Source: a virus. Taken from it: a DNA stretch of 64,000 nucleotides. The notes beneath the pieces were generated by a model. That model was not told where the DNA came from, searched no databases, and worked only from the letters and a program-made list of their open reading frames with translations. Position numbers and translations under genes: made by a program. Of the stretch, positions 24,465 through 45,814 are shown one piece after another (within the stretch, counting starts at the first letter, position 1; the number at the start of each line of letters is the position of its first letter). The stretch lies in IMG/VR virus record IMGVR_UViG_3300031825_000353; one strand, written 5' to 3'.

Positions 24465-25550
24465 TCAGTCCTCCCCTGCCGCACTTTTGCGGCCAGCCCA
24501 CCCGGTCTTCCGCGCCACCCGCTTCTGCGCTTCGGCTATCCGCCCAAGATCCCAGCCCAGGTAGACAGCGGTGGTGCGGATGTCCTTCTGCTCGAGGGCC
24601 ATCTGGATGTCCTGGATGGTCGCCCCGTTCTCACTCAGCCAGGTGGCGTAGGTGGCCCGAAGGCGGTGGGGCGTCATCCGAGGGACACCCACCGCCTTAC
24701 ATGCGGCATCGAAGACTCGGCGGATCCGCCCCGGCGTCACGGGCTTTCCCTTGAGGGTCGGGGCCATCCAGCCGTAGGGCTTGGCCTTCGCCCTCAATCG
24801 GTCCATGAGCCAGGACGGGACAGGACGAGGCACGGCATCCCCCCCCTTCGTTCCTCCGGGGGTGTAGGTCTCGCGTTCCAGGTCGAGCCATTCCCACCGT
24901 GACCGCTGGGCCTCGCCCCCTCGCAGGCCGATGCCGATCTCCAGGGCCAATACCATGCCCAGACCCGGGTCGTGCTCGGTCAGGGCATCTACCTCATCCA
25001 GCCACTCGTCAGCCTTGTCCGTCGGGATGAGGGGCTTGGGCTTCCGCTTCAGCTTGCTCTCTGCCACGTTGAAGGGCATGGCCCGGATCATGTTGCGGCT
25101 GATGGCCCAGCGGCACACGATCCGGATGTAGGTGAGCCACTGGTTCCCGGTCGAAAGGGCGTGGGTCTGAAGGAACACAGCCAGCTCGTCCTCGACCTTC
25201 GGGGTGGTGACCTGGGTCAGTAGCAGATCGCCGAGGCTCCCGAGGTGCAGGCGCCCGCAGCGCTCCATGTTTTCCAGGTGGCTCTTGCTCTTGCGAAGGA
25301 TGTGCAGGGGATGGTTGACCCACTGGACGAAGGCGGCCCGCAGTGTGGGCTCCGGCTCCTCACCCCTCGACCGCATCAGCGCCTTCTGGTGGATGTCCAG
25401 CGCCACCCGCTCAGCTTTGGCCGTGTTCCGCAGTGGCTCCTTGGTCGTCCGTGTCCGCCGCTTGTTGGCGATCTGAAACTCGCAATGCCAGGTCCCCCCC
25501 CTGGGGACCATCGTCACGGGCCCGCACCGGTAGCGCCGCTCGGTCACCAC
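24465..25550 (-). CDS. Second tyrosine recombinase, atypical (LGH replaced by LEQ)
   Basis: GLRGGE (R), TKG (K), HRLR, TTAVY (Y); GTG start coupled to upstream stop. Confidence 0.88.
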   Translation of the reverse strand: MVTERRYRCGPVTMVPRGGTWHCEFQIANKRRTRTTKEPLRNTAKAERVALDIHQKALMRSRGEEPEPTLRAAFVQWVNHPLHILRKSKSHLENMERCGRLHLGSLGDLLLTQVTTPKVEDELAVFLQTHALSTGNQWLTYIRIVCRWAISRNMIRAMPFNVAESKLKRKPKPLIPTDKADEWLDEVDALTEHDPGLGMVLALEIGIGLRGGEAQRSRWEWLDLERETYTPGGTKGGDAVPRPVPSWLMDRLRAKAKPYGWMAPTLKGKPVTPGRIRRVFDAACKAVGVPRMTPHRLRATYATWLSENGATIQDIQMALEQKDIRTTAVYLGWDLGRIAEAQKRVARKTGWAGRKSAAGED

Positions 25551-26329
25551 AGCTTCACCTTTTGGAGCATGGTCCAAAGCGCGTCCCGGAAGTGGCCCTC
25601 GAACACCTGGTTGAAGGTGGCCTCGATGGTCCCCTTGAAGTCGAGCACCTTGGAATACCTGGCTCGTTTCGGCACGAACTTGAAGAGCTGGGCCACCCCC
25701 CGTTTGCCCTTGCGGGTGTAGATGCCCAGCGGCGTCTTGGTCTTGATCGACCAGAGCACGAAGTAATCGCGCTGGGTCTTCGCTCGGCGCTTGTCCCGGG
25801 CTGGGTTCCGGCCGGTGCGGCCATCCGTCCTCCGGTTCTCGGTGGAGCCTTGATCGCGGAGGGCCCTCATGGCCGAGAGCACCTGCACATAGGTACCGCC
25901 CGGGATGTTCCCGTAGGCGTTCAGCTTCGCGTCGTCCCCGGGCTCCATCTGCCACCCTGGGGGGAGGATGCCCTTGGCGCGGAGCAGCATCTCGCTCTTC
26001 TTATTCGCACGGTAGCCACCCTGGGTCAGGGCCTTCAGGTATTCACTCGGCTCCACGACCTTGCCGCGAGTTTGCCAATTCCAATCCGCACCCTTCACGA
26101 AGACATCGTATTCCTGACGATTCTTCGTCGCCGCCTGGTAGCGGGTCGCATGCTGGGTCTGCGGCGTGGGTCGGTCGAGTTTGGAGCTCAGCACCTTGTC
26201 GAAGGCGTACTTGGCCGCCACGGCCGTCTTGGTCATGGCGGTGGCGATGGCGTATTTCAGGCCCTTGCCACCGCGAAGGTAGGTAAGCCTGGCCATCCAC
26301 TCTTTCGTGTGCCAGCCGAACTTGATCAT
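25544..26329 (-). CDS. Neck/tail-completion (gpZ/HK97 gp10-like) protein
   Basis: AIATAMTKTA...KLDRPTPQT and LNAYGNIPGG..QVLS motifs. Confidence 0.55.
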   Translation of the reverse strand: MIKFGWHTKEWMARLTYLRGGKGLKYAIATAMTKTAVAAKYAFDKVLSSKLDRPTPQTQHATRYQAATKNRQEYDVFVKGADWNWQTRGKVVEPSEYLKALTQGGYRANKKSEMLLRAKGILPPGWQMEPGDDAKLNAYGNIPGGTYVQVLSAMRALRDQGSTENRRTDGRTGRNPARDKRRAKTQRDYFVLWSIKTKTPLGIYTRKGKRGVAQLFKFVPKRARYSKVLDFKGTIEATFNQVFEGHFRDALWTMLQKVKLW

Positions 26330-28698: not shown

Positions 28699-28830
28699 CG
28701 GTCATCCGCGAAAATTTAGGCTTGGTTTGCGTTTGCAGTTCTACGGTTCGTTCAACAATTACGTTTTAAAAAGAGTGATTAGGCGAACTTGGGCGTCCGA
28801 ATGAAGTTCGTCTAATTCAAAGTTGGGCGT

Positions 28831-29172
28831 TCACTCGGATCGCAGACTTTCCCGGTGCTCAAGTTCTTCACCGCTGTCCTCCCACGAAATGGCCATGGCG
28901 TGGCAGCAGGCGGAGCACCAACGGAAGGTCTGGATCCCTCCGTCGTAGGCTTCGGCTCTTATTCGGATTCGCTCTCCCGGTTTGATCTCTCCGGTGCAGA
29001 TTTGGCAAGGCCCAGGCTTTCGCGCCACGCCGATCTTATCTTTCAGCACCACTTCACCGTCCCCGAAGTCTCCCTCGAAAGGGTTGTAGGCCATGCACTC
29101 CTTTTCGTTGAAGTCGCGCCCAACCGGCTCCTTCAACTCGGACCCAGCCTGGATTTGCTCATTTGGCATCAT
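28831..29172 (-). CDS. Cassette 1 ORF, Cys-rich (CQIC/CSAC) putative Zn-binding protein
   Basis: Starts in loop of attC-A; VARKPGPCQICTGEIKPGERIR motif. Confidence 0.75.
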   Translation of the reverse strand: MMPNEQIQAGSELKEPVGRDFNEKECMAYNPFEGDFGDGEVVLKDKIGVARKPGPCQICTGEIKPGERIRIRAEAYDGGIQTFRWCSACCHAMAISWEDSGEELEHRESLRSE

Positions 29173-29217
29173 CGTGGTTCCCTTCTCCGGCTGGGCCGGT
29201 TAAGTCGAAAGTTAGGC
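29118..29217 (+). repeat. attC site A
   Basis: GCCCAAC ... CTT[C]AAC[T]CGG[A]CCCAGCC / GGCTGGG CCG GTT AAG ... GTTAGGC. Confidence 0.9.
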
Positions 29218-29469
29218 ATCTTCTGTGAGCCTTACGCCCTTGAAGTAGATATGGCCGCAACTAAAACACTCGTAGGGCGTTTCCGTGTCGCGCTTCATCC
29301 ACTCGTGGGCTGGATTGCAGTTCCAGCAGGATCTAGTTGGGAACAACCCCAATAATCCGGATGGCCCATTTGCCTTCGCCCACTCTTCCGCTTCTTGCCT
29401 CAATGTTTCGACGGTGCCCAACCCGCCGCTCAACTCGGACCCTTGGGCCTGTTCATCTTTTCGGTTCAT
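29212..29469 (-). CDS. Cassette 2 ORF, Cys-rich (CWNC/CFSC)
   Basis: ATG and RBS AGGAAGG in loop of attC-B; TAA stop is inside the GTTAGGC core of attC-A. Confidence 0.72.
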   Translation of the reverse strand: MNRKDEQAQGSELSGGLGTVETLRQEAEEWAKANGPSGLLGLFPTRSCWNCNPAHEWMKRDTETPYECFSCGHIYFKGVRLTEDA

Positions 29470-29514
29470 GGTTCGTCCTTCCTGGCCCAAGGGCCGGTTA
29501 GCTTTTCGTTAGGC
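29416..29514 (+). repeat. attC site B
   Basis: GCCCAAC ... GCT[C]AAC[T]CGG[A]CCCTTGGGCC / GGCCCAAGGG CCG GTT AGC ... GTTAGGC. Confidence 0.92.
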
Positions 29515-29796
29515 GTCAGCCTTCGTGCAAAGAAGGAACAGGCTTCCCCCTTCGTTGACCAGGCTGTCTTTCTGGTGGTGCTTGCATGTGCCCATAGGCA
29601 CGGGGCCTTGAATGTTCGTGATGATCCCGTGGGCGCAGACGCGGGGCTTCTCACCCAGCGCCTCGGTGTGAGCCAGAAGGGGGCAGGTTGAACAGGAAAG
29701 GTCCCAGATCCCCGCATTCCCTTCCGTGAACTTCACCCGGCGCCTAACCACGGCGCTCAACCCGGACCCCGCCTTCGTTTCGTCCTGGCTCATCAT
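29509..29796 (-). CDS. Cassette 3 ORF, Cys-rich hypothetical
   Basis: RBS AAGGAG and ATG in loop of attC-C; stop in core of attC-B. Confidence 0.72.
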   Translation of the reverse strand: MMSQDETKAGSGLSAVVRRRVKFTEGNAGIWDLSCSTCPLLAHTEALGEKPRVCAHGIITNIQGPVPMGTCKHHQKDSLVNEGGSLFLLCTKADA

Positions 29797-29839
29797 GTCT
29801 CCTTGGCCCACGGCGGGGCCGGTTAGCTTTTCGTTAGAG
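29742..29839 (+). repeat. attC site C
   Basis: GCCTAAC ... GCT[C]AAC[C]CGG[A]CCCCGCC / GGCGGGG CCG GTT AGC ... GTTAGAG. Confidence 0.9.
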
Positions 29840-30046
29840 CTCCCGCAGCACGATGTGATTGTCCTTGCTCCGGTAGTAGAGGTCCGGGAACCGGTCACGC
29901 CACGCCATCAGCTCCGCCTCCAGCTTGGCTCGCGTGATGCAGCAAAGTGGCTGCGGGAATGCCGTTTCAAAACTGAATGGAGTGATCATCGCCCTAACCG
30001 TGGCGCTCAACTCGGACCCTTGGGCCTGTTCATCTTTTTGGTTCAT
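29834..30046 (-). CDS. Cassette 4 ORF, hypothetical
   Basis: Starts in loop of attC-D; stop in core of attC-C. Confidence 0.7.
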   Translation of the reverse strand: MNQKDEQAQGSELSATVRAMITPFSFETAFPQPLCCITRAKLEAELMAWRDRFPDLYYRSKDNHIVLREL

Positions 30047-30091
30047 GGTTCATCCTTCCTGGCCCAAGGGCCGGTTAGCTTTTCGTTGGGC
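29992..30091 (+). repeat. attC site D
   Basis: CCCTAAC ... GTTGGGC; 82/84 nt identical to site B. Confidence 0.92.
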
Positions 30092-30092
30092 G

Positions 30093-30272
30093 CTACCTGT
30101 AGATCAGAAGGGCAGCCCAAACAGTTGCAGCAGCGCCGAGAATGAAGCTGACGAGATCCGCACCGAGCGTCGTTTCTTCTTTCCTTGGGTAGTTGCAAAT
30201 TGCGATTCGGCCAAGTCGGATCACCCCGGCTATAACGCCAAGCCAGAAAGTGAATTTAATGAATGTGAGCAT
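30093..30272 (-). CDS. Cassette 5 ORF, 59-aa two-TM membrane protein (absent from ORF track)
   Basis: Manual translation MLTFIKFTFWLGVIAGVIRLGRIAICNYPRKEETTLGADLVSFILGAAATVWAALLIYR; GAGG/AAGGG upstream. Confidence 0.7.
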   Translation of the reverse strand: MLTFIKFTFWLGVIAGVIRLGRIAICNYPRKEETTLGADLVSFILGAAATVWAALLIYR

Positions 30273-30286
30273 CCCTTAGTCCTCGC

Positions 30287-30381
30287 GCTCAACCGAGCGC
30301 TCAACTCAGACCCCGGCGCCTGATGGTTGTGGTTTCTTCATCGCTAATCCAGCGCCGGGGCTGGTTAGCTTGGCGTTAGGC
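30287..30381 (+). repeat. attC site E
   Basis: GCTCAAC ... GCT[C]AAC[T]CAG[A]CCCCGGCGC / GCGCCGGGG CTG GTT AGC ... GTTAGGC; compensatory CAG/CTG pair. Confidence 0.92.
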
Positions 30382-30612
30382 CGCTTCCATCTCAAATTGC
30401 ATTTCCAGCGCCAGCTCCTCAGTCACCAGCAACGTTCTACCGTCCGGCATAGTGCGTTCCCACATCCAAAGGCATCCCGGGGTCTGGCAGGTATGCTTCC
30501 ATCCAGCCGCTTCTAAAAACTTTTGAACCGCGTTTGTGTAGTTATCCGACGCCACGTCTTTCAGCGCGAGAAGTTGGTCTAATTTCATCCTTTCAATCGT
30601 TTCCACGTTCAT
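30376..30612 (-). CDS. Cassette 6 ORF, hypothetical
   Basis: RBS GGAGG; stop in core of attC-E. Confidence 0.75.
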   Translation of the reverse strand: MNVETIERMKLDQLLALKDVASDNYTNAVQKFLEAAGWKHTCQTPGCLWMWERTMPDGRTLLVTEELALEMQFEMEAA

Positions 30613-30621
30613 TTCCTCCGG

Positions 30622-30719
30622 GCCTAACCAGGCCCTTCAACTCGGACCCCAGCGCGGGTGCGATGTGGTTTCTGATAGGTCCGGCCTGCGCTGGGGCCGG
30701 TTAAGGGCGGGCGTTATGT
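30622..30719 (+). repeat. attC site F
   Basis: GCCTAAC ... CCCTT[C]AAC[T]CGG[A]CCCCAGCGC / GCGCTGGGG CCG GTT AAGGG ... GTTATGT. Confidence 0.9.
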
Positions 30720-31433
30720 GGATCTACTCATGCCGCTCGGCTCCCAGTTCCAAAGAGCCTCACCGCCGCGTAGCTCGGGCAGATAGATGCCGTCCACCTT
30801 GTCGGGCCGAACATACTTCCCGAGGAAATCCACTTCGCCCTTGCGCTCGCAGCGCCAGACAGCGCCCTCGGCTGGGTCGAGTGCCCCGTGATGGCCGGTG
30901 CCTCCAAGGCGAGCCATGGCCGTCTCGACAGAGCAGGGGCCGCCGAGATGAAGGACGGTCGGCGTGGTGATTCCGGCGCGGTCGCACCTGGCGCTCAGTT
31001 CCTCCCATAGCACCCGCTTCCCCTCCCTGAAGATGTCGAAAGCGGCGAAGGGTTCGTGGGCCAGCAGGTAGCGGGTGCCGTGGGCCTGGGCTAGCCATTC
31101 GCCACAGATCCGCTCCCCTTCGGCCAGCAGATCATTGAAGCGTGGCCAGTTCTGGGCCACCCACCCGGCGAAGAGGTGATGCTGCGAATAATGGCTTGTC
31201 TCCGCCCTCCACCCGGCGCGGGTGACGGGCACAATCACCCCGCCCAGCTTCCCGATGCCCACATTCGATCCGTCCAGCTTCTCTTGCACGATGATGAGGT
31301 CGTGCCGGTCCCTGACCCTTTCCGTGAGAATACGGGCCTGCCCGTCAGCGATCTTGTGATCTCCTGGCCCCAGCCTGCTCATGGGCAGGTGGCCGATGGA
31401 CCCGTAGGACTTCCCGCCGAATGGTTTGTTCAT
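30714..31433 (-). CDS. Cassette 7 ORF: ATP-dependent RNA ligase family protein (start ATG 31433)
   Basis: Nucleotidyltransferase motifs I QEKLDGSN, III GEW, IIIa FDI, IV EGAVW, V KYVR; stop in core of attC-F. Confidence 0.88.
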   Translation of the reverse strand: MNKPFGGKSYGSIGHLPMSRLGPGDHKIADGQARILTERVRDRHDLIIVQEKLDGSNVGIGKLGGVIVPVTRAGWRAETSHYSQHHLFAGWVAQNWPRFNDLLAEGERICGEWLAQAHGTRYLLAHEPFAAFDIFREGKRVLWEELSARCDRAGITTPTVLHLGGPCSVETAMARLGGTGHHGALDPAEGAVWRCERKGEVDFLGKYVRPDKVDGIYLPELRGGEALWNWEPSGMSRST

Positions 31434-31462
31434 CTTTTTGACTCCCTGTTGGTTGGGGTTCG

Positions 31463-31495
31463 CCACATAACCATCTCGCTCAACCCGGGCCCAGC
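31463..31495 (+). repeat. Half attC site G (R'' and L'' only)
   Basis: CCACATAAC is the exact reverse complement of GTTATGTGG at cassette start; GCT[C]AAC[C]CGG[G]CCC follows; no partner arm found. Confidence 0.75.
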
Positions 31496-40492: not shown

Positions 40493-41080
40493 TTGCGAAT
40501 TCGTATGTTGCTCCTCACGCTCTTCGTCTCCAGCTGGGCCATGGCCCAGGGCTTCGGCATCAGCCTGGGTCTCTCGGGCGCCAAGCCCCGCTCCATCCAG
40601 GACACCACGTTCACCAACCAGCTCGGCGCCTACCTCGGGGCCTCCTACCGGTGGAAGGAGTTCACCCTCGGCGCAGCCTACAAGACCGCGGGGAAGTCCA
40701 CCATCAGCTACTCGGGCTTCGAATCCAAGGACGAGTTCAAGTGGTCTTACTCCGAGGCCTCGCTCCAGTACGGCATCCCCTTCAAGGGGGAAAGCGTGAC
40801 GCAGCGGATCCTGCTGGGCGGCGCCATGCGATTCGAAAACACCAAGGCCGAGGACAACACCATCGGGCTCAGCGTCAGCGCCAACTACAACCGCTTCTGG
40901 TGGCGGGCCGGGTACGAGATCGAAGGAGAGGTCGACCAGGTGTTCACCAGCCTCGGCGTGTTCTACGCGGGCACCTCGAAGGAGACCTTCGACCCCAACA
41001 AGGACTACACGACCAAGGAAGCGCAGCGGCTCTTCGCGCCGACGAATGAATTCCAGATCATGGTGACCTTCAGGTTCTAG
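40493..41080 (+). CDS. Outer-membrane beta-barrel protein (lysogenic-conversion moron)
   Basis: RBS GGAGG before TTG; signal peptide ending AMA-Q; alternating aromatic beta strands; C-terminal FQIMVTFRF. Confidence 0.82.
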   Translation: MRIRMLLLTLFVSSWAMAQGFGISLGLSGAKPRSIQDTTFTNQLGAYLGASYRWKEFTLGAAYKTAGKSTISYSGFESKDEFKWSYSEASLQYGIPFKGESVTQRILLGGAMRFENTKAEDNTIGLSVSANYNRFWWRAGYEIEGEVDQVFTSLGVFYAGTSKETFDPNKDYTTKEAQRLFAPTNEFQIMVTFRF

Positions 41081-42251
41081 ACCCAGCCAACCCCGCCTCG
41101 ACTACGCCCACATCCTCCCGCAGCTTCTTGGCCGCGATATGGGCGTAGCGGCGCGTCTGGCGGCTGGTGGTGTGGCCCAGCATGTCGCCCACGTCGTCCA
41201 GGTCCAGGCCCTTCATGCGGGCCATGGTGGCGAAGGAGTGGCGGAGATCGTGGATGTGGAAGTCAGCGAGCCCCAGCTCCTTCAATTCCGTGCCCCGCCG
41301 GCGCTGCCACCAGCTTTCGAGCCCCTTATAGGGACCTTTCTTCCCGGGAAACACCCACTTCGACACCTTCCGTTCTGCGCGCTCTTTCAGCAGGGCCACG
41401 GCATGCGGGCCCAGGCCCACCAGGCGGTTCTTCTTGGTCTTCTTCCCGGTCTTGTGCTGAGTCCGCGGGATACAGATCACGCCGCCCTCCAGATCCATCC
41501 ACTCCCATTCCAGCTTCTGGGCCTCGCCCAACCGGGCGCCAGTCATCAGGAGGAACCGCAGCTGGGAGACGGGCAGGGCATGCTTCTCCTCATTCCGATC
41601 CAGCCAGGCGGCAAAGGCCACCAGTTCCGCTTCACTGAGTGCGCGGGTGCGCTCCTCCTCTTCGAATCGGATGACATCAAGGCAGGGGTTCGAGTTCCTG
41701 GGCCGCTGCTTCCATTCCTCAGCGGTGGACAGGGCCGACGAGAGCACGGCGAGGGCGAGGTTGGCTGAGCGGGGATGCTCGGCCAGGGCCTGGTGCACCT
41801 CGGTGGCCTCCTTCGGCCCGATGTCCGCCACCATCCGGCTGCCCAGGGCAGGGACGAGCACCTTGCCCACGATGCGGGTGTAGTCCTTGATGGTCTTCTT
41901 CGCCAGGCGGGCCACGTGCTTGGCCAGCCATTCCTTCAGGAATTCCCGCATGGTCTGGGCCTTCCGCAGCCGCTTCTTCTCGGTGCGCGGGTCCTCGCCG
42001 CGCGCGACCATGCCCAGGTGATCCGCCGCAGTCTTGCGTGCGGCTGCCACCGGCAGCTTCGGGAAGGCCCCGAATGTTTCGCAACCATCGCGGCCGCGCA
42101 AGCTGAAGCGTATGATGTAGGCGACCTTCCCCTTCGGCGAGACTCGCACACCGAAGCCGGGCAGCTTGGTATCCATCACTTCGTATCGCTTTTCCTCGGC
42201 TTGCAAAGTCACCAGGAATTCTTTGAGGATGTGCCTTTCACGGAGTGCCAT
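41070..42251 (-). CDS. int: Phage integrase (tyrosine recombinase with arm-binding domain)
   Basis: TGARLGE, HKT, HDLRH, LGH, TRRY; N-terminal DTKLPGFGVRV; adjacent to att site. Confidence 0.95.
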   Translation of the reverse strand: MALRERHILKEFLVTLQAEEKRYEVMDTKLPGFGVRVSPKGKVAYIIRFSLRGRDGCETFGAFPKLPVAAARKTAADHLGMVARGEDPRTEKKRLRKAQTMREFLKEWLAKHVARLAKKTIKDYTRIVGKVLVPALGSRMVADIGPKEATEVHQALAEHPRSANLALAVLSSALSTAEEWKQRPRNSNPCLDVIRFEEEERTRALSEAELVAFAAWLDRNEEKHALPVSQLRFLLMTGARLGEAQKLEWEWMDLEGGVICIPRTQHKTGKKTKKNRLVGLGPHAVALLKERAERKVSKWVFPGKKGPYKGLESWWQRRRGTELKELGLADFHIHDLRHSFATMARMKGLDLDDVGDMLGHTTSRQTRRYAHIAAKKLREDVGVVEAGLAGSRT

Positions 42252-42395
42252 GGGGTTTCTCCGATTTTCGGGTTTCACGGGGTTTTCACGGAACGCAGCA
42301 ACCCACAGCCACCATCGTGCACCATTTTCAGACCCATAAACCCAAGAAATTCAACCACGCCACCAGCTCAAACCACCCCATCCAAGCGCGGCTCC

Positions 42396-43283: not shown

Positions 43284-43583
43284 CTAGTCCATCCCAATCG
43301 CCGGATCCTCGTAGGGGCACTCGGGGGAGGAGCAGTGGTCGGTCTTGCGGCGGCCGACGCCGGGGCTGGTGGATTCCAGGACGCTCACCCGGGCATGGAG
43401 GTTCCGCAGTTCGCGGGAGTGACCATCGCCCTGCTTCTCGACGCGCTGGAGGGTGCCGTTGACGATCTGGAATTCCCGGTTGATGGTGGCGTAGATGTTC
43501 TTCAGCTCGCGGCTGACGGTCCACTTCAGGAGCGCCCAGAAGGCGGCGAGCAGAACCGCGAAGTCGAGAAATTTGGATTCCAT
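43284..43583 (-). CDS. Small membrane protein, holin/XhlA-like (full copy)
   Basis: N-terminal TM plus coiled coil. Confidence 0.55.
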   Translation of the reverse strand: MESKFLDFAVLLAAFWALLKWTVSRELKNIYATINREFQIVNGTLQRVEKQGDGHSRELRNLHARVSVLESTSPGVGRRKTDHCSSPECPYEDPAIGMD

Positions 43584-43590
43584 CGGTGCC

Positions 43591-44346
43591 TCAGAAGCGG
43601 ATTCCACCGCCGAGGGCGGCCGTGTGGTTGAGGTAGACGACCTGGACTTGGGCCGGGCCCCAGGAGGCGGCGGCGTAGGCGCCGAGGTGGCGCTGGCCGG
43701 TGGTATCGACGCCGTAAAGGGCGCCCACGGCCCAGGTGCGGGTGCGGGGGGTGAGATCGATGGCGCGGGCGAGGGCCGCGGCGCGGCGGGCCTCGGTGTC
43801 GGCGCGGGTGTCGGCGGCGGCCAGGGCGCGGTCGGTGGCGGCCTGCTGCTGAGTCTGGGCTTGGGAGCGGGCTTCCTGGGCGGTGGTGAGCTGCTCCAGG
43901 TCGCCCAGGCGGGCCTGCAGGCCGGGCACGCGCAGGGCTTCCCAGCCCCAGCCCAGCACGGCGCGACCGTCGGGCAGGGTCAGGGCCAGGTCAGTGCCCA
44001 GCTCGCGCGGGTGGAGCCCCAGGCCCTGAAGGCCCGCCACCACCACGGCAGCGGAGGCATCGGCAGGGACGGGCACGGCGGGCGGGGGCACGGGATGCTG
44101 CGCAGCCTGGCGCTGAAGCCGGGCCACCTCGGCATTGGTCTCGGTGACCAGCTGCTGCGCGGCGGCGCGGTCGGCCTTCGCCGTCTCCTCGGCTTGACGT
44201 GCCGCACGGATCTCTCCCTTCAGGATGGTGGCTTCCTCGATGGCGGCGGCGCGGCCCCGGGCCTTGTGCACCGCCACGCCGATGGAGGCCAGCAGGGCGA
44301 GGGTCAGGGCGGAGAGGAGGAGGGTGGCCTTGGCGGCGTCGGTCAT
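43591..44346 (-). CDS. Spanin-like protein (copy 2)
   Basis: Identical translation to 204..959. Confidence 0.6.
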   Translation of the reverse strand: MTDAAKATLLLSALTLALLASIGVAVHKARGRAAAIEEATILKGEIRAARQAEETAKADRAAAQQLVTETNAEVARLQRQAAQHPVPPPAVPVPADASAAVVVAGLQGLGLHPRELGTDLALTLPDGRAVLGWGWEALRVPGLQARLGDLEQLTTAQEARSQAQTQQQAATDRALAAADTRADTEARRAAALARAIDLTPRTRTWAVGALYGVDTTGQRHLGAYAAASWGPAQVQVVYLNHTAALGGGIRF

Positions 44347-44524
44347 GGCAGCGGCTCCTCAGCCACCGGAACCACCAGATCCGCCTCGTCAGCCACCTCG
44401 AACCACTGCCCCGGCGTGAGGTCGGCCATGCTCGCGGCCAGGCTCTCCGCATCGGGCGCGATGAACACGCGGCCCCCGATGGGCAGGCCCGCCTCGTCTG
44501 TGAGTTGGACTATCGCCTTGACGC

Positions 44525-45814
44525 TCACCAGTTCACCCCCACGGTATCGCCTGCGGTCAGCGGCCCTGAATACGTCCACGACGCCGCTACGACGTCCCCA
44601 GCCTCCAGGCCGCCCGTGTAGGACCAGGTGCCGGAGTAGGTTCCGCCGCTCTGTGCGGTGGTGATGGCACCCGCGCTGGTCATGGTGTAGTCGGTGAGGG
44701 TGACGGGCGTCGCCCCCGTAGCGATGTAGCTGCCGCCCTCAACCGACGCCATGGCTCCCCAGAAATAGAGCCCACTGGCCCCGTCTCCGTTGTAGGAGGT
44801 CAGGCCCCCGGCATCTGCCAGATAGCAGAGCAGTCGGGGGGTTGTGGCCCCTGTCCCAGACGGTGCCGTGAACCCACACAGCAGCGATCCATCACTAAGC
44901 CTAATTGCATAAGTGTCGGTAGCCGTCGAAAGCGCCGCTACCGTCCCCGCCGTCAGATCAATATTGATCCCAGGCTCCGAGCCAGCCTTGCCGCGCAAAC
45001 GGAAACTGGCGCGGGTGCGTGTGCCAGGGTAGAGGACCGCCATGCACTTGTAGCTGGTGTTGTCTGCCAGCGTCACTCCAGGCCCAAGGACCAGATGGGT
45101 GTTGGCGGCAGTCGCATCCTCCTGGATGAACCGCATTACACCGCCGGTCACGTTGGGTGCTGTGCGCGTGGCTGCGCCAATCGTGCAGCGCGTCTTGATC
45201 CATCCGCCGTTGGTCAGATCCTCGGAAACGGGGCTGACGTTCGTCCGCGCCGCACTCGACAGCGCCACGGTCCCCTGCCAGTCCGTCCGGGTGAGCAAGG
45301 ACAGCGACGGAGCATTCCCCGCATCCGTGTCCGACCCGTCAGCCCGCGTGAGCTGGAGGTGGGTCGAGTCCACCACCCGGGGCGCAGCCGTGCGAGGGCC
45401 GTGAGCCCATGCCGTGAGCGTGACCGCGCCTGCCGCGTCCATCGTCCAGCCACGGGCGAGGCCGTTGACCGTGAGGGCGGAGATCGCTGGGGCGTTGGTC
45501 GCGTCCGTGTCGGAGCCGTCGGATTTGGTGAGGTGGAGATTGAGGCTGTCGATGCTACGCGGGGCGGCTGTGCGCGAGGTCGTGAGCCCCGTGAGGGTCA
45601 GCACGTTCCCGCTGCGCGTGAAGCTGGCGAGGGGAGCGCCGTTGAATAGGACGGAGGCAGGGGTGGCGCTGCACGGCTGGCCGAACGGGTCGAAGATCGC
45701 CGCCTGAGTTGGGGGCACCAGGACGGCGGGCACGGGGTTCGCCGTGGGGGCGCGGTCGAGGATGCGGATGGGGCCACCCTGGGGCGTGGGCGGAACGGCG
45801 ACGAGGCGCATCAC
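44525..45814 (-). CDS. Tail fibre-like protein (copy 2)
   Basis: Identical translation to 1138..2427. Confidence 0.6.
   Translation of the reverse strand: MMRLVAVPPTPQGGPIRILDRAPTANPVPAVLVPPTQAAIFDPFGQPCSATPASVLFNGAPLASFTRSGNVLTLTGLTTSRTAAPRSIDSLNLHLTKSDGSDTDATNAPAISALTVNGLARGWTMDAAGAVTLTAWAHGPRTAAPRVVDSTHLQLTRADGSDTDAGNAPSLSLLTRTDWQGTVALSSAARTNVSPVSEDLTNGGWIKTRCTIGAATRTAPNVTGGVMRFIQEDATAANTHLVLGPGVTLADNTSYKCMAVLYPGTRTRASFRLRGKAGSEPGINIDLTAGTVAALSTATDTYAIRLSDGSLLCGFTAPSGTGATTPRLLCYLADAGGLTSYNGDGASGLYFWGAMASVEGGSYIATGATPVTLTDYTMTSAGAITTAQSGGTYSGTWSYTGGLEAGDVVAASWTYSGPLTAGDTVGVNW

Follow-up and report, generated by a model that had tools for sequence, protein, structure and literature searches.

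Integrons are usually regarded as bacterial devices for gene capture that reside in chromosomes, plasmids or transposons. Phage genomes can also contain groups of attC sites that have no integron integrase (CALINs), as was described by Qi, Rajabal, Ghaly, Tetu and Gillings (2023, Front Microbiol 14:1091391; PMC9892861), who reported them as rare and small and proposed that IntI acts in trans upon the phage attC sites, which was shown with IntI1 for three phages. The same study describes the Vibrio anguillarum phages Va_90-11-286_p16 and PF430-3_p42, which carry subsets of the host array, together with intIA, at the prophage border. In the chromosomal integrons considered by Richard et al. (2024, Sci Adv; PMC13108822), only a minority of cassettes are reverse-oriented; most of these encode toxin-antitoxin systems under promoters of their own, and their role is a stabilising one. 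A preliminary description of the locus presented here had called attC arrays rarely described in phages, which is fair, although such arrays were published in 2023 (PMC9892861).

The window, by which we mean the whole stretch of DNA analysed (IMGVR_UViG_3300031825_000353), is a circularly assembled phage genome of 43,387 bp, and it represents a complete temperate siphovirus-like phage. Comparison with Holophagaceae genomes points to Geothrix-like soil bacteria of this family (Acidobacteriota; Geothrix and relatives) as the most likely host, the phage TerL being 70-72% identical to, and the structural module syntenic with, those of prophages in two Holophagaceae genomes. The array lies in the phage early region, as had been proposed, with replication genes on one side and a methylase and other early genes on the other, and the lower GC content ascribed to it was also found (0.58-0.59 within 29-31 kb compared to 0.65-0.70 in the flanks). 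Among 50,697 GenBank phage records, BLAST found none that matched the array. We consider it likely (a probability of about 0.8) that this phage carries an integron platform without an integrase, made up of an attI-like site, six complete cassettes and a seventh with a truncated attC site, and served by the IntI of its host. The features of the array are as follows (bit scores are those of the covariance model R2, described below).

28777-28827, plus strand: attI-like site, box GATTAGGCGAAC, 27-nt spacer, then TTCGTCTAATTCAAAG|TTGGGC
28822-29211, minus strand: cassette 1, ORF 28831-29094, 87 aa, own AAGGAG ribosome site
29118-29217, plus strand: attC1, 57.5 bits, E 2e-12, with attC fold
29212-29508, minus strand: cassette 2, ORF 29212-29469, 85 aa
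29416-29514, plus strand: attC2 (repeat D2), 64.4 bits, 97% identical to attC4
29509-29833, minus strand: cassette 3, ORF 29509-29796, 95 aa
29742-29839, plus strand: attC3, 65.8 bits on the plus strand versus 12.3 bits on the minus strand
29834-30085, minus strand: cassette 4, ORF 29834-30046, 70 aa, from the attC4 loop to a stop in the core
29992-30091, plus strand: attC4, 63.9 bits
30086-30375, minus strand: cassette 5, ORF 30093-30272, 59 aa, hydrophobic, own start outside attC
30287-30381, plus strand: attC5, 54.6 bits, 97% identical to an attC of locus L042 that flanks a different ORF
30376-30713, minus strand: cassette 6, ORF 30376-30612, 78 aa, own GGAGG ribosome site, stop in the core
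30622-30719, plus strand: attC6, 48.3 bits, E 4e-10, R' GTTATGT
30714-31464, minus strand: cassette 7, RNA ligase family gene 30714-31433, 239 aa, PF09414 E 2.4e-21
31465-31493, plus strand: truncated attC7, R'' (ACATAAC), spacer and L'' (GCTCAACCCGGGCCC), right half missing

Like the phage CALINs, this locus has attC-bounded cassettes without intI and a link to DNA-modification cargo (an N6-methylase cassette in the related array L056). It differs from them in its six complete attC sites plus remnant, in an attI homologous to that of the presumed host, in a site family demonstrated to be common to the host integron, in genes of reversed polarity whose translation signals lie in the attC loop, and in an architecture that recurs in several unrelated Holophagaceae phages. 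With the sedentary chromosomal integrons (the Vibrio superintegron and those of Geothrix and other Holophagaceae) it shares the R''/L''/L'/R' boxes, three bulges and variable loop, the same attI motif, the G|TT footprint and near-identical attC sites on unrelated ORFs, but it has no adjoining intI and is short, at 7 cassettes. These cassettes are 250-390 bp long with a GC content of about 58%, compared to 300-900 bp and lower GC in host arrays, and their genes are on the bottom strand, pointing towards attI, so that phage transcription would read them, whereas chromosomal ones point away from it and are served by Pc. The V. anguillarum prophage fragments are likewise integron parts of the host's type in a temperate phage, but the present array lies inside the phage genome, runs in the same direction as the early operon and is composed of a distinct class of cassettes. 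As in the reverse chromosomal cassettes treated by Richard et al., the ORFs are antisense to the attC top strand; unlike in those, the whole array is reversed and homology searches gave no toxin-antitoxin likeness among its cassettes. New in this locus are the attI-like start, the RNA ligase gene as seventh cassette, the absence of a phage IntI, the reversed polarity, the occurrence of cassette 1 elsewhere and the intI-less arrays in other phages.

The six elements of 95-100 nt are true integron attC sites and were found at the coordinates given in the preliminary description. Their 5' ends read RYYYAAC, except in attC4 (CCCTAAC), and their 3' ends GTTRRRY, except in attC3 (GTTAGAG) and attC6, so that the ends claimed for all six hold for most, with three cores (R'' of attC4, R' of the other two) departing from consensus by 1-2 bases. 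Every element folds into an imperfect hairpin with an L''/L' stem, an unpaired central spacer and a variable terminal loop, and the extra bases C, T/C and A always lie on the 5' arm of the plus strand, on one strand only (on the minus-strand hairpin the bulges are G, A/G and T on the 3' arm), which bears out the three unpaired left-arm bases and variable loop noted previously. Covariation of the stems, also claimed then, was evident in 76 aligned sites of this attC class, in which 96% of cells were paired (80% in shuffles and 25-46% in slid-partner controls), 16/23 pairs had compensatory changes and double-change cells numbered 233 against 54.5 in shuffles, the alignment being fitted to the model and so somewhat favouring structure.

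A covariance model (R1) built from the six phage sites recruited 101 sites in arrays adjoining intI, and the second model, R2, was built only from those 101 chromosomal sites, which come from Holophagaceae and one gammaproteobacterial chromosome. The matches of R2 in the phage were exactly the six sites, all on the plus strand, at 48-66 bits (E 1e-10 to 1e-14), and with filters off no further match was obtained across the whole genome of about 43.4 kb; this is the covariance-model check that the preliminary description had suggested, and because R1 recruited the sites of R2 the models are not fully independent, adjacency to intI being the independent element. An nhmmer attC profile was less sensitive and gave fragmented matches, and covariance-model matches with an anchored regular expression were used instead, while a scan of Rfam, which is without an attC family, gave chance matches only. 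With six attC sites in the same (plus) orientation within 1.6 kb and no intI in the whole genome, the array belongs to the CALINs.

At its start, the array is bounded by the attI-like site, where the crossover falls between G28821 and T28822 and the two boxes form an inverted repeat. Read on the minus strand, this site is a 12-bp hairpin followed by TCTTTTT, which may be a terminator (its loop of 13 nt is beyond the limit of our terminator scan). It is homologous to a conserved site that lies upstream of intI, at 150-300 bp, in four Holophagaceae chromosomes (about 300 bp in those of Geothrix); such chromosomal attI sites (L043, L044, L045, L046) lie between intI and the first cassette, end in GTTRRRY, and are conserved on the intI side and variable past the crossover. 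The motif also stands at the start of the arrays L042, L015, L032, L030 and L033, and the similarity among all these sites stops right after GTTRGG. Homology and position together suggest that the phage site functions as attI, and as no intI adjoins it or the array, the element is not a complete integron. The distal end of the array is the attC7 remnant, the left half of which matches the attC subtype of L042 and L056; no distant right half was found, either by R2 with filters off or by eye. Extended by 2 nt, its R'' is complementary at 9/9 positions to the beginning of cassette 7 (CCACATAAC versus GTTATGTGG), and the RNA ligase gene is the seventh cassette, ending in a truncated attC. The attI-like boundary, the left-half-only seventh attC and the opposite strand of the ORFs had been missed in the preliminary description.

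The footprint of recombination is seen in how each R'' matches the cores around it. Mismatches between R'' and the core of its own cassette number 0, 1, 0, 1, 1 and 0 for the six complete cassettes and 0 for the seventh, compared to 1, 1, 2, 2, 2 and 2 against the downstream core (3 versus 10 in total in the window). This agrees with what had been reported from the sequence, and it extends to phage-type arrays overall, where the own-cassette core was the better match in 17/20 informative pairs and the downstream core in 1, indicating that the array was assembled by exchange at the canonical G|TT. From one G|TT to the next, cassettes 1-6 measure 390, 297, 325, 252, 290 and 338 bp, of which only the first had been given differently (389 bp).

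Cassette 1 was also found, identical at 396/396 positions (28822-29217), in a contig from another study's metagenome in which it belongs to a different array, preceded by an attC instead of an attI and followed by other cassettes. The identity stops exactly at G28821|T28822, and the presence of an identical cassette in another array argues for recent exchange. Contigs of another metagenome contain cassette 7 as a separate piece (30712-31482). Going by these copies, cassette 1 exists as a discrete unit in other arrays, and cassette 7 probably does likewise. The arguments for mobility are all comparative, and the contig joints, mostly attC-to-attC, were not counted as excision events. Invariant gene content among relatives, which had been named as evidence against shuffling, was not what we found, given cassette 1 in another array and a related prophage (G035) in which no attC was detected, though its host has intI. 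The comparison with G035 concerns the presence or absence of the array and not the reordering of cassettes.

The canonical organisation of a cassette, with its ORF on the attC top strand and read away from attI and Pc, is not that of the window, where 4 cassette ORFs lay on the bottom strand, 1 was ambiguous and none was on the top. Host chromosomal arrays had 59 ORFs on the top strand, 1 on the bottom and 3 ambiguous, and two cassettes with 98-nt attC sites were the sole non-top cassettes of the G. alkalitolerans chromosomal array. The cassette ORFs of the window were also those predicted by an independent gene caller, and homology backs the bottom-strand location of the genes in cassettes 1 and 7; in other phage loci the strand was ambiguous for about a third of cassettes, which are short and GC-rich. 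A ribosome site and ATG were present in the attC loop on the bottom strand at 32/60 sites, with the ORF continuing into the cassette at 26/60, compared to 2/60 and 0/60 on the top strand. In cassette 2 the ribosome site and start codon lie in the attC2 loop and the stop is the TAA in the core G|TTAGGC; cassette 3 starts in the attC3 loop (AAGGAG..ATG) and stops in its core site, and the gene of cassette 7 stops at the TAA in the core G|TTATGT. Many cassettes thus have ribosome site and start in the loop and TAA in the core, and each would be a self-contained translation unit. No sigma-70-like promoter was found in a scan of the region, and the hairpins in the promoter and terminator scan lay only inside attC sites, on the plus strand. 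The orientation of the genes suggests that the bottom strand is the transcribed one, and thus that transcription runs towards attI by phage read-through.

As for cargo, the ORF of cassette 1 reaches 29172 if begun in the attC loop, and its protein matches phrog_19515 (E 6e-16) from residue 25 of this long form onwards; it is a small zinc-ribbon-like phage protein. The cassette 4 and cassette 5 ORFs are 78% and 36% identical, respectively, in amino acids to ORFs in the array of the IMG/VR contig L030, and protein database searches with cassettes 1 and 6 matched only hypothetical viral clusters. The array thus holds small phage proteins of unknown function and an RNA ligase, which are plausibly host-takeover or counter-defence genes.

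The phage encodes two tyrosine recombinases, neither of which is an IntI by the profile TIGR02249 (curated cut-off 265 bits):

41070-42278, minus strand: phage integrase with arm-binding domain (PF00589, PF13356), TIGR02249 33.9 bits
24465-25955, minus strand: second tyrosine recombinase (phrog_1), TIGR02249 33.8 bits

No intI was found in the phage genome, so the phage most likely borrows the enzyme of its host. An intI above the cut-off was present in 52/81 sampled Holophagaceae genomes; the five tested genomes with the motif all have one (457-471 bits), and the chromosomal arrays close to intI point away from it. Both a host IntI and the phage's second recombinase had been proposed as the driver, and the former is strongly favoured by these comparisons, because the sites belong to the Holophagaceae intI-linked attC/attI family and because intI is common in the host family while the phage recombinases score far below the cut-off.

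Arrays of this kind, likewise without intI, are present in 13 IMG/VR contigs and in a Mu-like prophage of the cultured Geothrix fuzhouensis SG12; that prophage has attI and eight attC sites, and the strain itself also carries an intI. Across these unrelated phages the architecture is the same and the cassettes differ, with near-identical attC sites flanking unrelated ORFs. Neither IntI nor the terminase phrog_15 was found in five other array-bearing viral records, which are not close relatives of the window phage; no close homologue of the window integrase was found at the other array loci.

Under the reading that we prefer, host IntI would act in trans upon the folded bottom strands of the phage attC sites, probably once intI and the prophage have both been induced by the SOS response. 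Cassettes would be inserted at the phage attI and excised by attC x attC exchange, and their genes would be expressed in the direction of attI by transcription running in from the phage early operon, with no integron Pc involved.

The array could instead be a frozen acquisition, taken up by illegitimate recombination on a single occasion, whether from a chromosomal integron or from a different phage, and by now an inert passenger of the phage. In favour of this are the truncation of attC7 at the far end of the array and the absence of attC from a related prophage, even with intI in its host, and Vibrio prophages are known to have captured pieces of chromosomal integrons (PMC9892861). We think a frozen array unlikely, as the cassettes are shorter, higher in GC and opposite in polarity to those of host chromosomes, attI has been kept, all six attC sites retain full pairing and their bulged bases, the architecture recurs with different cassettes in unrelated phages, and an identical cassette 1 sits in another array.

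Still less probable is exchange driven by either phage tyrosine recombinase in place of host IntI. The phage does have two such enzymes, one without an obvious role, but each reaches about 34 bits with the IntI profile, the sites are of the same family as those served by chromosomal IntI, and a homologue of the second recombinase is carried by the related prophage that has no array; the five other viral records have arrays without IntI, and the other loci lack a close homologue of the window integrase. That the repeats are regulatory or terminator hairpins, with any shuffling due to homologous recombination as in T4-type promoter-stem-loop cassettes, would account for hairpins between co-transcribed genes, ribosome sites in loops and near-identical attC sites beside unrelated ORFs, but we regard it as the least credible of the alternatives: the match to intI-adjacent attC sites discriminates between the strands (as given for attC3), the asymmetric bulges are conserved, and neither the 17 to 1 preference for own-cassette complementarity nor the end of cassette 1 identity at the exact G|TT is predicted by homologous recombination.

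Host IntI service of an integrase-less platform thus remains the preferred reading, and under it the locus is a coherent phage version of an integron, with a host-type attI, a full array, no integrase and cassettes suited to phage transcription; direct comparative evidence supports the movement of individual cassettes from one array to another at the canonical crossover. A broader proposal, to which we give slightly less than even odds, is that Holophagaceae temperate phages of unrelated lineages (lambda-like and Mu-like) keep integrase-less platforms that parasitise host IntI, with a dedicated pool of reverse-polarity cassettes with loop-borne starts. The reverse polarity would then keep expression apart in both directions, since phage cassettes in a host integron would be antisense to Pc and host cassettes in a phage antisense to phage transcription, and two gene pools could share one recombination machinery without expressing each other's cargo. 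If host IntI services the phage arrays, these phages would have site-specific swapping of early accessory genes, probably for counter-defence, and the SOS response would couple prophage induction to reshuffling of the phage gene set.

The six repeats of the phage array are attC sites of the Holophagaceae family. They lie where the preliminary description had placed them (29118-29217, 29416-29514, 29742-29839, 29992-30091, 30287-30381 and 30622-30719, + strand), and the cassette lengths, the reduced GC of the array and the complementarity footprint were also as it had described. Folded as single-stranded DNA, each element forms an imperfect hairpin in which R'' (RYYYAAC) pairs with R' (GTTRRRY), with an unpaired spacer of 5-6 nt on either side, a stem of 16-19 bp, a variable loop and three single-base bulges confined to one arm: on the + strand this is the 5' arm (C, T/C, A), on the - strand the 3' arm (G, A/G, T). 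Rfam has no attC-type family and so membership was tested against real integrons. The genome contigs bearing a motif common to four of the elements were almost only from Geothrix and other Holophagaceae (Acidobacteriota), along with one Gammaproteobacteria MAG with an array of at least 80 kb. An integron integrase was found in all five motif-bearing genomes tested (457-471 bits on the IntI model TIGR02249, cut-off 265 bits), compared to no matches above the cut-off in 14 control genomes, and the repeat arrays start a few hundred bases from intI and are directed away from it (in G. alkalitolerans, the DX1.bin12 MAG and the gammaproteobacterial MAG).

A covariance model made from the six phage elements (R1) recovered 101 sites in the intI-adjacent arrays of those chromosomes. 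When a second model (R2), made solely from these 101 chromosomal sites, was searched against the whole phage with filters off, it singled out precisely the six phage elements, each on the + strand and scoring 48-66 bits (E 1e-10 to 1e-14), ahead of a next best match at 12 bits. Over an alignment of 76 phage-class sites, 96% of cells were paired and 16 of the 23 pairs showed compensatory changes, while slid controls in the same alignment paired at 25-46%. The + strand of the window is the attC "top" strand, i.e. that reading away from intI in the chromosomes. The gammaproteobacterial integron (OZ244144.1, ~5.00-5.08 Mb; our loci L003-L006, L010, L018, L020, L021, L025 and L047) is chromosomal, spans at least 80 kb and has 109-nt attC sites, whose L-box core (TCAACTCGGACCC / GGGCCGGTTA) recurs across phyla in those of Holophagaceae; repeated units of 251 bp, in which the bottom strand has the longest ORF, make up many of its cassettes.

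The window is a circular 43,387-bp assembly read about one and a half times, since the ORFs at 108-1277 and 43495-44664 are identical, as are bases 1-200 and 43388-43587; window positions 1-20613 equal 43388-64000, and everything past 43,387 duplicates the start. The same contig is also recorded as a 43,436-bp soil metagenome contig. It is the complete genome of a temperate siphovirus-like phage, with structural genes (tail protein, tape measure, major head protein, protease, portal and large terminase), a replication module (DnaC-like loader, initiator and DUF3850), a C5 DNA methylase, an antirepressor, a CII-like protein and two tyrosine recombinases. The features of the window referred to below are:

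24465-25955, - strand: second tyrosine recombinase of 496 aa, with the replication module on one side and the terminase genes on the other
28777-28827: attI-like site at the start of the phage array, GATTAGGCGAACTT..AAGTTCGTCTAATTCAAAG|TTGGGC, homologous to the chromosomal sites
31465-31493: left half of an attC at the far end of cassette 7, its R'' matching the cassette start 9/9
41070-42278: integrase with arm-binding domain

The attI-like site has its counterpart in four Holophagaceae chromosomes, where a conserved site is found 150-300 bp upstream of intI (CTAGGCG(A/T)AC, ~27 nt, then GTCGTCCAATTCAAAG|TTAGG) and the four sequences diverge immediately past it, as would be expected of an attI followed by differing first cassettes. 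The arrays of five other loci (L015, L030, L032, L033 and L042) open with the same attI-like site. Its right half also resembles the simple site of attI1 (..CCTAAAACAAAG|TTAGGC), a resemblance that serves as a lead. Pairing of the two boxes of the attI-like site on the - strand (28766-28817) gives a hairpin of 12 bp and a 13-nt loop, with TCTTTTT after it, and this may have a second role as the terminator of the early operon.

Neither of the phage tyrosine recombinases is IntI, as both scored only ~34 bits on the IntI model against its cut-off of 265, and thus the array is a CALIN (a cluster of attC sites lacking an integron integrase) in the terms of IntegronFinder, yet one that has retained attI. 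A homologue of the second recombinase (50% identity) is kept in a related prophage without an attC array. Searching with R2 found arrays in 13 IMG/VR contigs, of which five were checked for intI and lacked it (including one with terminal repeats and one 97% complete). A Mu-like prophage of the cultured Geothrix fuzhouensis SG12 contains an attI and eight attC at a distance of 56 kb from the intI of its host; its genes encode MuA- and MuB-like proteins, a portal fused to a MuF-like domain, a terminase and a head protein:

L015, Scaffold2 328001-336000 (also L052 and L053): SG12 prophage array, attI-like site and attC between the early (MuA/MuB-like) and late genes

Two Holophagaceae genomes have prophage genes with 70-72% identity to the terminase of the window, and in one of these prophages the whole structural module is syntenic. 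No attC sites were found in this syntenic prophage, though its host has intI, so the array is an accessory feature. Among 81 sampled genomes of Holophagaceae, 52 have an intI above the cut-off.

The junctions show how the cassettes were assembled. R'' complements the first six bases of its own cassette better than the downstream core, with totals of 3 and 10 mismatches respectively in the window; over all phage-type arrays the own-cassette core was better in 17 informative pairs and worse in 1, and in host arrays better in 13 and worse in 2. The RNA ligase gene acts as a seventh cassette, with its stop codon inside the core G|TTATGT, but the right half of attC7 is missing. Contigs from other public metagenomes provide the most direct evidence of mobility. 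A groundwater contig of 2,407 bp, originating in a different study, has cassette 1 with attC1 (28822-29217) at 396/396 identical positions, and identity ends precisely at G28821|T28822 and, at the other end, past the core; there cassette 1 is preceded by another attC, not attI, and is followed by cassettes of 95, 96 and 82 aa and a 288-aa N6-methylase. Cassette 7 is found as a discrete piece (30712-31482, ~96% identical) in another metagenome run, and the array of an IMG/VR contig (L030) includes a homologue of cassette 4 at 78% identity.

In the array that holds the identical cassette 1 in the other metagenome (L056, 1-867), an N6-adenine DNA methylase with a DPPY motif is bounded by attC, consistent with the methylase cargo reported for phage CALINs. 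Separately, attC5 (30287-30381) and attC6 (over 30626-30716) have counterparts at 97-98% identity, also in their loops, in two neighbouring attC sites of another viral contig (L042, 1186-1287 and 864-954), but the adjoining genes differ from those of the window; it is typical of chromosomal integrons that near-identical attC sites accompany unrelated ORFs, which bears on cassette genesis.

Phage cassettes are reversed in polarity. In seven Holophagaceae chromosomal arrays, cassette ORFs were on the top strand in 59 cases, the bottom in 1 and ambiguous in 3, compared to 4 bottom and 1 ambiguous in the window and 6 top, 34 bottom and 25 ambiguous in the other phage-type arrays (16 loci), which thus follow the same trend; for the ambiguous cassettes inspected, third-position GC mostly pointed to the bottom strand. 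An independent gene caller called the same ORFs, and homology confirmed the bottom-strand genes of cassettes 1 (phrog_19515) and 7 (PF09414). The sole non-top cassettes in the G. alkalitolerans chromosomal array are two with 98-nt attC, so phage-type cassettes do enter host integrons, with attC setting their orientation. Phage-type cassettes (98-nt attC, bottom-strand ORF) in the chromosomal arrays of G. alkalitolerans and the DX1.bin12 MAG are located at:

L026, 5503-5600 and 5864-5961
L028, 3491-3588

In the DX1.bin12 MAG, the first cassette, adjoining attI, is of the phage type. A bottom-strand ribosome site and ATG are found in the loop of 32 of 60 phage-type attC, with the frame continuing into the cassette in 26, compared to 2 and 0 for the top-strand equivalents. 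Of the window's cassettes, 2, 3 and 4 have their start within the loop and 1, 5 and 6 a start of their own immediately outside attC; 5 of the 7 ORFs stop on TAA, which complements the TTA of G|TTA.

Integrons and CALINs in phages have been described by Qi et al. 2023 (PMC9892861), who reported 17 CALINs, each with at least 2 predicted attC, in 10,705 genomes and recombination by IntI1 of 5 of 6 tested attC sites, from three virulent phages. In comparison to those CALINs, the host-type attI, the uniform reversal of cassette polarity together with translation signals placed in the attC loop, and the exact-junction evidence for cassette exchange are new here, as is the proof that one site family is common to phage arrays and the chromosomal integrons of the host family.

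The data establish what the sites are, where crossover takes place, that cassettes move, that the phage lacks IntI and that host IntI is available, whereas catalysis and its timing, transcription and cargo function are inferred. Most likely, host IntI works in trans, with cassettes entering at the phage attI and leaving by excision between attC sites. Their expression would come at the end of the phage early operon on the - strand, in the order methylase, RNA ligase, cassettes and attI hairpin with its T-run. As a cultured isolate, G. fuzhouensis SG12 is a ready experimental system.
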